Assembly (NCBI GenBank): GCA_041694835.1
Contig: JBGFRZ010000056.1
Coordinates: 1 to 41,752, forward strand
From: Ignavibacteria bacterium
Lineage (GTDB): Bacteria > Elusimicrobiota > Endomicrobiia > PHAN01
DNA: 41,752 bases
Reading direction: 5' to 3'
Made by a program: the position numbers. Shown one piece after another: positions 6,001 to 9,000 of the stretch. Position 1 is the first letter of the stretch. Each line of letters begins with the position of its first letter.

Positions 6001-9000
6001 GGCTCTATCGCCCGATGGGCGCCCGCGATGCCCACATCGTAGGATGTGAGTACTTTGCATCCCATTTCTTCTGCTATAACGCGCGATTCTTCCGCCACGC
6101 CGATATCAGCGGTGCCGGCAGTAATTAGACCTATTTTTCCGTCGATTTTGCAGGTTTTATATCCTTTCTTTTCGACTATAACCACGCATGCTTCGGGATA
6201 AAACCTAAAAATAAATCCTTTCGGAATGGATTTCTTTATTTTTTTTGCAAGTTTTTCGTCAACCTTTGTGGCGATTGCCCTGCCTTTGCTCGTCGCCATA
6301 CGGATTATACATTTAACCGCCCATGACGGTTTTTTACTCCCGGCAAGAACCACTTCGGGAATGCCTGTTCTTTCATCGCGACAAACATCAAGTTTTGCTA
6401 AATTATCTATAAACTCCAATTTGAACTTGTCGAGTATTTCCGGGATTTGGTTTTCATTTTCCATTTTTTTCGTTTTCATCGATTATATCCGTAATCTCCT
6501 TTTTAAACACTTCGCCTCTGTGTTCAAAACTATTGAACATATCAAAACTGGCGCAAGCGGGCGAAAGCAACACCACGCCACCCGCCGATGAATTGGACAC
6601 TTCTTCAAAAGACACGCGAACCGCTTCTTTCATATCGGCGGCTTTTTTTACCTGCACTATTCCCCTTAACGCCGAGCCAATTTTATCGGTTGCTTCTCCA
6701 ATCAAAACCACAAGTTTAATTTTATTTTTTATCGGAGCCAACAATTTTGAAAAATCGCCGCCCTTGTCCTTTCCGCCCATTATCAGTGCCACTTCTTTGG
6801 AGGAATTGAGAGACATTATCGCCTTTAACACAGAGTCAACATTGGTCGCTTTTGAGTCGTTGATAAAATCCACTCGGTTAAAACTTGCCACTTTTTCCAT
6901 TCTGTGAGGCAATCCTTTGAAACTTTTTAGCCCCGAACGGATAAGAGAAATGTCCAGTCCTTCCAGCAAAACAGGGAGTGACGCTGCAAGAACATTTTCT
7001 ATGTTGTGAAGTCCAATTAAGTGTAAATCCGCTAAGTTAAAAAATGGTAAAGTTGTTTTTCCGTCGTGAAAAATAAAATCGTCGCCTTGCAAAAAAGTTC
7101 CATTCGTCACCTGCGTCCTTCGGGAAAACCAATACTTTTGTCCTCGCTGTATATTATGAAAATATTTTTTTGACAGAGCGTCGTCAAAATTCATAATGAC
7201 TTTGTCATCTGATATGAGATTCTTAAATATATTTTTTCTCGTCTTAATATACTGAGCCATCGAAGGATAACGGTCGAGATGGTCCTCGCTTATGTTTGTA
7301 AGAATGACATAATCACTTCTAAAAGTTTTTATTTCTTCAAGTTGAAAACAAGAAACCTCAACTACGGCATAAGAATCGGGCTTGATGTCCTCGGCAAAAC
7401 TTATAAACGGCACACCAATGTTTCCTAAAAGATAACTCTTTTTGCCGGCAGTTGTGAAGAGATGATGGACGAGTTCTGTGGTGGTTGACTTTCCATTTGT
7501 GCCGGTTATGGCGACGATTTTCCCTCTACAAAACCTGAACGCCAGTTCAATTTCGGAAATAACTTCTTTTCCGTCGCAGTCAAGCTTTTTAAACTGCGGA
7601 TACTTAAATCTGCTTATGCCGGGACTCATTACAATAAGAGCCGAACGAGCAATCTCATTAAAATCAAAAGGGCCAAAGTTATATTTCACCCCGTTAGAAG
7701 TCCGATGTAGTTCAAGAACTACATCGGCATCCCGACTTTTGTCGGGATTACTTCTAACGGGGCAAGCTCCTTCTTTTAACTGCCCGTGGGCACTTTTCGG
7801 TTTTTCGTCGAAAACTGTGATGTTCGCTCCCTTTTTCAGGAGAAAATCCACCACCGCTTTACCCGTCAAAGCAAATCCTATAATTGATATTTTTTTACCT
7901 TTTAATTGCATAAAATTTTTTCAAGCAACTCTATTCGGGGTTCTATGGAGATACTTTCGTCGAGCACTTTCATAGCGGAATCTATGTCTTTGAGCCCGCT
8001 GCCAGTTATCAAACAGACAACTTTTTCGTTGTCTTTGATTCTGCCCGCATCGTACAATTTTTTATATCCGGCATAACTTGCCGCCGCAGCAGGCTCTGTA
8101 AATACTCCTGCTTTTTGGGCAATAATTTTAATTGCACTCAATATCTCTCCATCTGAAACCTCAACCGCTTCTCCACCCGACTCCGTTACCGCTTTTACCG
8201 CAGCAAGACCGTCTCGGGGCATGTCAACGTTTATGGAATCCGCTACTGTGGTCGCTTTTACGGGTTTGATTTTTTGTCCTGTTTTGATTGCTGTCGCTAT
8301 GGCATTGCTTAACTCCGACTGAACCGCTATCAACTGCGGAAGTTTGTCTATCAGACCAAGCATTTTTAAATCCCGAAAACCTTTTCCTATTCCGCTGATG
8401 ATATTGCCATCACCGACGGGAACAAATATTTTATCGGGAACACTAAATCCGAGTTGTTCCCATACTTCATAAGAACCCGTCTTCATTCCTTCCCGCGTGT
8501 AAGGGTTGTATCCTGTGGAACGATTATACCACTTATATTTTTCCGACGCTTCCAAGCAAAGGTCATAAGCATCATCATAATTTCCTTTCACCTTGATTAT
8601 CTTGGCGCCGAATATGGATATCTGCGCCATTTTTGCTCTTGGGGCGTTTTCGGGGACAAAAATCACTGCTCTTATTTGAGCGTTTGCGGCAAGGCACGAC
8701 ATTGAGGAACCGGCGTTTCCCGTCGAGGCGCAGCATATAACTTCATGTCCTTCTTTTAAGGCAATCATTAACGGAACGGCGCTTTCTCTGTCCTTGAAAG
8801 AACAACTCGGATTTCTCCCGTCATCTTTCAGATATAAATTGTTTCCCAATGATTTCGCTTCGTATAGCGGCGTCCATCCAATTTTAAGTTTAAGCGATGA
8901 AACGAATTTTTCATCGACGGGCAAAATAGGAAGATATCGCCATATGGAGTAGTCGGTGTTTTTAGCGAGATAAAATTTGTTGAATATTTTTTTTATTCGT

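Follow-up and report, generated by a model that had tools for sequence, protein, structure and literature searches.

Palindromic elements dispersed through the genome analyzed here are probably non-autonomous miniatures of an ~280-bp element, whose GIY-YIG nuclease would mobilize them in trans. The links between nuclease and mobility are all correlative, in that the nuclease clade tracks both the ends of the element and the mini-copies. The miniatures (minis) themselves behave like Rickettsia palindromic elements (RPEs) and have the structure that defines MITEs.

A palindrome within murD and its family

The window, by which we mean the whole 41,752-nt stretch of DNA that was analyzed, carries a non-autonomous palindromic element of 74 nt at positions 7689..7762, within murD. 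The genome-wide survey's note had placed this copy at 7688..7763; the element is present, with a true span one base shorter on each side. Its host, murD (6454..7911, minus strand), is an open frame of 485 aa assigned by Pfam. The left 13-bp terminal inverted repeat (7689..7701, plus strand) consists of 10 fixed bases, CCCCGTTAGA, followed by 3 that covary with the opposite end, and the right 13-bp repeat (7750..7762, minus strand) is its perfect complement. On the plus strand the element is flanked by TTCA (7685..7688) and CAAG (7763..7766), a pair also found at sites with known empty versions; by that comparison, the TTCA is probably a 4-base tail borne by the element and the CAAG is probably the original YNNR target. 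The DNA is predicted to fold into a three-way junction (−33.6 kcal/mol) in which the cargo forms two hairpins, at 7702..7727 and 7730..7747. The second of these resembles a short palindrome of the dRS3/NTS type (NTS consensus from PMC11893778), and its type is abundant by itself elsewhere in the genome. The interior is 77% identical to that of a 74-nt copy in a PyrK-type gene (contig C71).

Together with 4 extra bases, the copy adds 26 codons to murD, at about residues 50 to 75, and the encoded peptide is missing from 19 of 19 MurD relatives. The AlphaFold model of this MurD has a mean pLDDT of 87 and is confident except for a low-confidence loop, residues 44 to 67, outside which the fold is predicted to be intact. 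A second copy in the window (10662..10729; 68 nt, flanked by TTTA and TGAA) lies in frame within a 522-aa ORF (9571..11139, minus strand), which matched no Pfam family and had no match in the 5 relatives tried. A lone arm with the outer flank TAAA is present at 12637..12646 on the minus strand; its partner was not found.

Across the assembly (1.9 Mb in 89 contigs, 97% complete) there are 100 exact arms, compared to 2 occurrences of the reversed motif, and 63 paired copies (≤2 mismatches, within 130 nt). Each of 4 scrambled-arm sets gave 0 pairs and 3 Markov-5 simulations gave 0 to 1, confirming that the palindrome family is real. The minis measure about 24 to 130 nt, and their number here is the highest among the phylum genomes counted for the strict pattern. 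The 63 pairs overstate the number of events because several copies were amplified within host repeats, giving three identical 62-mers and thirteen 29-mers. We also observed an ~285-bp host MITE with 21-bp ends that was hit by the palindrome at two different positions and then amplified with its insert (G000 contigs C4, C28, C39, C49, C52, C54, C64, and C66).

Arm positions 11 to 13 differ among copies, yet in 227 of 372 copies the two ends complement each other at these positions (41 expected); we therefore take the ends to be 13 bp long. The interiors of 178 copies of ≥50 nt fall into 158 clusters. Thus, the complementarity of the ends, combined with unrelated interiors, indicates that the conserved feature is end pairing rather than cargo, in agreement with the earlier description of fixed arms around variable cargo.

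The four bases outside each arm fit YNNR. Exact 4-bp direct repeats flank 19 of 63 sites in this genome (4.5 expected) and 147 of 373 distinct sites in the pooled loci (23 expected); well over half of the sites have no exact duplication, and many of them show a fixed tail instead. Same-genome copies of multi-copy host repeats that do not carry the insert served as empty sites. At one site the duplication is clean, with CTCG on both sides of the element and a single CTCG in 7 empty paralogues, while two other sites retain the target on one side and have a new TTCA on the other. The net gain per insertion was element length + 4 at every empty-site comparison, the extra 4 bases representing a genuine duplication of the target or else a TTCA tail brought in by the element. 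Sites flanked solely by TTTA/TTCA read inward form a one-mismatch pair in 42 cases versus a perfect palindrome in 9. The palindromes have 13-bp terminal inverted repeats and no mobility-coding capacity, and the 4-bp target duplication seen against empty sites, with the tail in its place at others, makes them MITE-type elements. A reading of the arms as integron attC sites (GTTRRRY core) was rejected, because its polarity would be the wrong way round and the duplication is external to the arms.

Copies in protein genes are in frame

The arms are open in two of three frames on each strand, encoding peptides of the form PVR...SNG or TPL...LTG. All 17 copies in long ORFs have a length of 2 mod 3, as do 26 of the 46 remaining copies (P = 5e-4). 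The copy preceding ribD is counted among the 17 but is situated upstream of where that gene probably starts; without it, 16 of 16 in-gene copies are in frame. The frame rule noted by the survey therefore stands for every in-gene copy, but the quantity that keeps the frame is length + 4 and not length. In a set of 157 copies, one of them this genome's own, the rule was kept by 41 of 45 copies in long ORFs versus 47 of 112 outside. Insertion had been described as an in-frame event; it is not targeted to frame, as copies that would break a frame abound between genes but are missing from genes, and the in-gene bias is selection among random landings. In the pooled loci, the commonest lengths (29, 53, 59, 62, 65, 68, 80, and 83) are all frame-keeping even when intergenic copies are included, which suggests lineage-level selection on element length.

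The host enzymes that had been named were verified by Pfam as MurD, QueA, DapF, ArsC-type LMWPc, PurS, PyrK-type, and GT4, and further hosts are PyrF, CysG/HemD, ArsP, and a radical SAM-DUF2344 protein. In eleven hosts the copy falls within or between Pfam domains, several times in linkers. As the survey had found for MurD, QueA, and DapF, relatives do not have the peptide; it is missing from 5 of 5 QueA and 5 of 5 DapF relatives, and the alignment gaps of 26 residues in QueA and 24 residues in DapF correspond to copies of 74 and 68 nt. To judge from the open frames, the peptides are presumably produced as part of the proteins. Separately, copies at four loci (L188, L189, L250, and G000 contig C86 21348) were seen within pilin-type leader peptides. 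At the first three loci they are at the GF cleavage motif, where L188 has two copies in tandem with one shared 4-base spacer.

Copies in the FMN riboswitch and RNase P RNA

The FMN riboswitch (contig C4, 2357 to 2552) scores 61.1 bits against an Rfam cut-off of 66.2, whereas the aptamers of 5 of 5 relatives score 86 to 102 bits. The survey's report of two copies in its loops and a score below the cut-off was thus correct; the minis push the score under the threshold, and annotation misses the riboswitch as a result. By alignment, the two 68-nt copies sit in L3 and L6, and the conserved GGU and AAG are kept on either side. These loops take part in the L3-L5 and L2-L6 contacts of the FMN aptamer (PMC12219259), which has pseudo-two-fold symmetry (PMC7573352). 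Each insert self-pairs with a probability of 0.94, and the self-paired fold restores the six-helix core at −109.0 kcal/mol, versus −109.2 kcal/mol for a cross-paired alternative. Riboswitch function is likely kept. The two copies share one interior, which is unique to them within the genome, suggesting copying from one loop to its twin.

We examined 25 other FMN aptamers, 20 of which were extractable, and many have ordinary hairpins in L3 or L6. Two contain related elements, one in both loops (genome G036, 85 bits) and one in L6 (genome G212); both L6 inserts have TTCA before and the native target after. Arms and cargo differ in these two, indicating that FMN loops were hit independently. In a further case (L571, the G410 FMN aptamer), L6 holds a long stack of other hairpin repeats, and L6 thus collects several repeat families. 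A third copy on contig C4 (2702 to 2784) lies between the terminator-like hairpin of the FMN leader and the ribD start; the duplicated target ends with the A of the probable ATG, and the element itself contains an AGGAG.

The RNase P RNA scores 83.8 bits against a cut-off of 100. The survey's note held that a second palindrome, CCCCGAT...ATCGGGG, caps three of its helices. This palindrome is a separate, shorter family (19 copies, control 0), which differs from the murD-type elements with their target duplications. Two of the RNase P copies are identical 19-mers that extend helices, with CCCC/GGGG stems there in a relative. The third palindrome does not belong with them: in an alignment in which one misoriented relative was ignored, it corresponds by homology to P18, a native helix in relatives. 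RPEs inside RNase P RNA and tmRNA genes are reportedly already in print.

A ~280-bp element encodes a GIY-YIG nuclease

A candidate mobilizer, a GIY-YIG gene between the same arms, was found in other genomes. A metagenome scan for arms 240 to 301 nt apart gave 122 loci with 119 pairs, 73 of them without an inner arm, and one ORF family was present at 69 loci. At the 61 loci selected with a more stringent motif, the ORF begins ~20 bases inside the left arm; it ends within the right arm in 13 cases and on the first flank codon in 31. The encoded protein is a single domain of 80 to 95 aa; all 52 aligned proteins matched Pfam GIY-YIG (PF01541) and have invariant Tyr, Gly, Arg, His, and Glu. The gene is under purifying selection, with pN < pS in 80 of 80 close pairs, which are non-independent. 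The nuclease model (pLDDT 91.6) has Slx1, UPF0213, and HIGLE as its nearest folds, at Foldseek E values of 1e-3 to 2e-2, all above 0.001. Its C-terminal motif is presumably closer to the SLX1-like family cd10449 than to cd10448.

Full-length elements can be 97 to 98% identical between dissimilar 60-base flanks. In a reverse protein search, which is the stronger test, with a profile built from arm-flanked proteins, score thresholds set after the data were seen, and non-independence among related genomes, both arms flanked 19 of 23 matches of ≥110 bits and 0 of 39 below, and the arm encodes the last residues of 108 of the top 120 database homologues. At least 7,617 of 8,000 scored proteins are nuclease homologues, labeled 'putative endonuclease' or 'excinuclease ABC subunit C'. 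Within the phylum, nuclease matches occur in 16 of 19 mini-positive genomes versus 40 of 381 others; in other phyla, they occur in 20 of 31 element-positive genomes, the remaining 11 having no match at E 1e-18.

Arm variants differ between nuclease subclades, and in some of them the two arms have changed in compensating ways; more distantly related nucleases lie between sister arms with the same TTTA/TGAA flanks. Distant nucleases at L512, L591, L595, and L529 lie between other long inverted repeats that start with CCC and have YNNR flanks, which suggests a superfamily of matched arm/nuclease pairs. Many weaker matches are beside tRNA-like fragments (L507-L530, L588-L606) or other inverted repeats. 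Our nuclease tree is a rapid build from few alignment columns that leaves many forks open, and hence shows clustering only. Three full-length elements (L400, L438, and L463) seem to split a putative Bro-N-like gene, and seven others are just downstream of putative ORF6N-like genes.

This genome has no intact nuclease gene; the search returned UvrC and two truncated fragments with different arms. The latter, at G000 contig C7 22928-23059 and 21357-21497 (minus strand), are near-identical truncated GIY-YIG genes with arms of the CCCGCACC type, and by their sequence look like deletion derivatives of a sister element. The long arm pairs of this genome were rejected as full-length candidates, being minis enlarged by nested repeats with a longest open frame of 97 aa.

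The strict arm pair occurs in 20 of 401 phylum genomes (reversed control 0), and neither same-family genome is positive. The same ends are found in at least 9 other phyla, by the titles of at least 124 GTDB stretches, and one closed genome has 33 exact arms. The patchy occurrence within the phylum and the horizontal spread put forward in the survey's note are both supported by these data. The identical copy that it reported from another class was not found among the retrieved loci, which cover part of the copies in those genomes. The murD element had no match to plasmids beyond chance, and chance matches dominated a single-arm scan of viral contigs; the nuclease profile matched one viral locus and no plasmid.

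Discussion

In the pathway that we favor, the two arms of single-stranded or cruciform-extruded DNA would first base-pair to form a stem. Supplied in trans, the Slx1-like nuclease would cut the foot of this stem, leaving a 4-base tail, and would open the target with a 4-base stagger, after which host polymerase and ligase would complete the insertion. The resulting 4-base heteroduplex junction would resolve into a target duplication or a carried tail. Copies would land in any frame. In proteins, selection would retain only insertions of 3n in loops and linkers; in RNAs, it would retain hairpins that fold on themselves, in loops able to accommodate additional stems, such as FMN L3 and L6. GIY-YIG enzymes hydrolyze DNA, and none is known to carry out strand transfer, so that host repair must be assumed. 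The titles of Slx1 structure entries describe action on branched and 5′-flap DNA. As the assembly contains no intact nuclease gene, the copies in this genome are probably stranded.

Strand transfer without new chemistry is what a DDE transposase would provide, and an IS1380/piggyBac-like enzyme (CC ends, 4-bp target) might act in trans on the minis as well as on the 280-bp form; the nuclease would then be cargo that aids retention, for example through cleavage of empty sites in the manner of TnpB. Hairpin-type DDE enzymes give ends, duplications, and mixed junctions of this kind, and the perfect terminal repeats starting with CCC, the TNNA-rich 4-bp duplication, and the mixed donor/target junctions fit; purifying selection on the nuclease would be expected here too. 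However, IS1380-type genes are present in 10 of 50 element-positive genomes and absent from this one, where the search, which also covered IS4/5-type transposases, turned up one sub-threshold DDE fragment. None of 22 IS1380 loci in those 10 genomes carries the arms, the complete ones having other ends, and no DDE_Tnp_1_4 gene was found between arms, so membership in IS1380 was rejected. The neighborhoods of ~140 mini loci and 75 full-length sites show no recurring transposase family. The covariation of the ends, both within a copy and with the nuclease subclade, suggests that the arms pair with each other and are matched to an enzyme. We consider this explanation, the main alternative, unlikely, although our scans for arm pairs beyond this genome covered windows of 240 to 301 and 480 to 540 nt, plus exact arms in one closed genome, which leaves room for longer autonomous partners.

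Spread of the palindromes by an HUH transposase (Y1, RAYT, or TIRYT), as REPIN- or TIR-type repeats, is highly improbable. Y1 genes are common, occurring in 46 of 50 element-positive genomes and once in this genome, and TIRtrons with GGGG-containing repeats and intragenic REPs have been described (PMC3733652). Yet neither this genome's own Y1 gene nor any of the 30 best Y1 loci (of ~250 matches) is bracketed by arms, which argues against membership in REP/REPIN-RAYT or TIRtron systems, and 2 of the 30 have an arm-like sequence within 1.5 kb. The 480- to 540-nt window gave four matches, each opening with a complete mini and not a gene. Moreover, the arms are not themselves hairpins and have no GTAG/CGTC tags, and HUH insertion is not known to duplicate targets. 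Two integrase-family genes in this genome were found by a tyrosine recombinase search.

Still less probable is the absence of a dedicated enzyme, with template switching and gene conversion at quasi-palindromes and a nuclease gene that acquired arms once: the identical interiors of the FMN copies do suggest local copying between the symmetric aptamer halves, and arms covary within copies, but the same 10-base end in at least 10 phyla, the constant +4 with true duplications at unrelated sites, and the near-identical full-length elements in dissimilar flanks would be unexplained.

Set beside known systems, the minis and their nuclease share features with several. Like RPEs (Ogata et al. 2000, via PMC10969869), the minis are in-frame palindromes in unrelated housekeeping genes, fused in frame within conserved genes. 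RPEs as described from Rickettsia are ~105 to 150 bp long and encode a conserved peptide; compared with that description, the palindromes here have no conserved sequence or peptide of that size, conserve their ends alone, span at least 10 phyla, and have a candidate nuclease partner. With bacterial MITEs and their parent ISs they share short non-coding sequences, terminal inverted repeats, a 4-bp duplication, and a longer coding relative, although that relative is ~280 bp and encodes a GIY-YIG nuclease instead of a transposase, and the interiors are mostly unrelated.

The Ssn system with its NTS/SRM repeats (Chenal et al. 2025, PMC11893778) likewise has a small GIY-YIG gene bracketed by a dispersed repeat, and its authors liken NTS-ssnA-NTS to an insertion sequence. 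The protein described here is also a small single-domain GIY-YIG protein, and some cargo hairpins resemble NTS. In contrast, SRMs are self-contained, oriented hairpins, whereas each end here is one arm, and the two single arms pair across the gene rather than forming NTS-like self-hairpins. In that report, just 2% of NTS are in genes, mobility is not shown, and the main text gives no target sites or terminal inverted repeats. REP/REPIN-RAYT and TIRtron-TIRYT systems (PMC3733652) also comprise dispersed palindromes, some intragenic and in frame, and a small gene flanked by repeats, but they rely on an HUH tyrosine transposase, with repeats that are GTAG/CGTC-tagged or of the GGGGWSAS type, as opposed to a GIY-YIG protein and duplicated targets. 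Slx1, HIGLE, and UPF0213 (PDB 7cq2, 7wme, 1zg2) are the closest matches in fold and sequence (20 to 28% identity) and are host enzymes, not parts of mobile elements. In our literature search, mainly of open-access papers, neither these arms nor any GIY-YIG element bearing terminal repeats turned up, and the main text of two 2026 preprints does not describe them either. The palindrome/GIY-YIG family thus points to a kind of bacterial transposon new to the literature searched.

Beyond mobilization of the minis by the nuclease, which we favor, we put forward a broader proposal tentatively, as one that may somewhat more readily fail than hold: that the ~280-bp element with its 85-residue GIY-YIG protein is a transposon sufficient in itself, using a chemistry other than that of DDE, HUH, tyrosine, serine, or Cas1 enzymes and able to move any short sequence between two 13-bp arms, that it is one of a superfamily of nuclease-arm pairs across uncultivated phyla, and that it routinely adds loops to essential proteins and structured RNAs. 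Many annotated proteins contain odd peptides of the forms PVR...SNGV and TPLE...LTGF, for which the minis account. A two-part system of an 85-aa protein and 13-bp arms with free cargo lends itself to simple assays. Should the nuclease be the mobilizer, the family would be a new class of prokaryotic transposable element of just ~280 bp and would offer a testable answer to how RPE-type in-frame coding palindromes spread.
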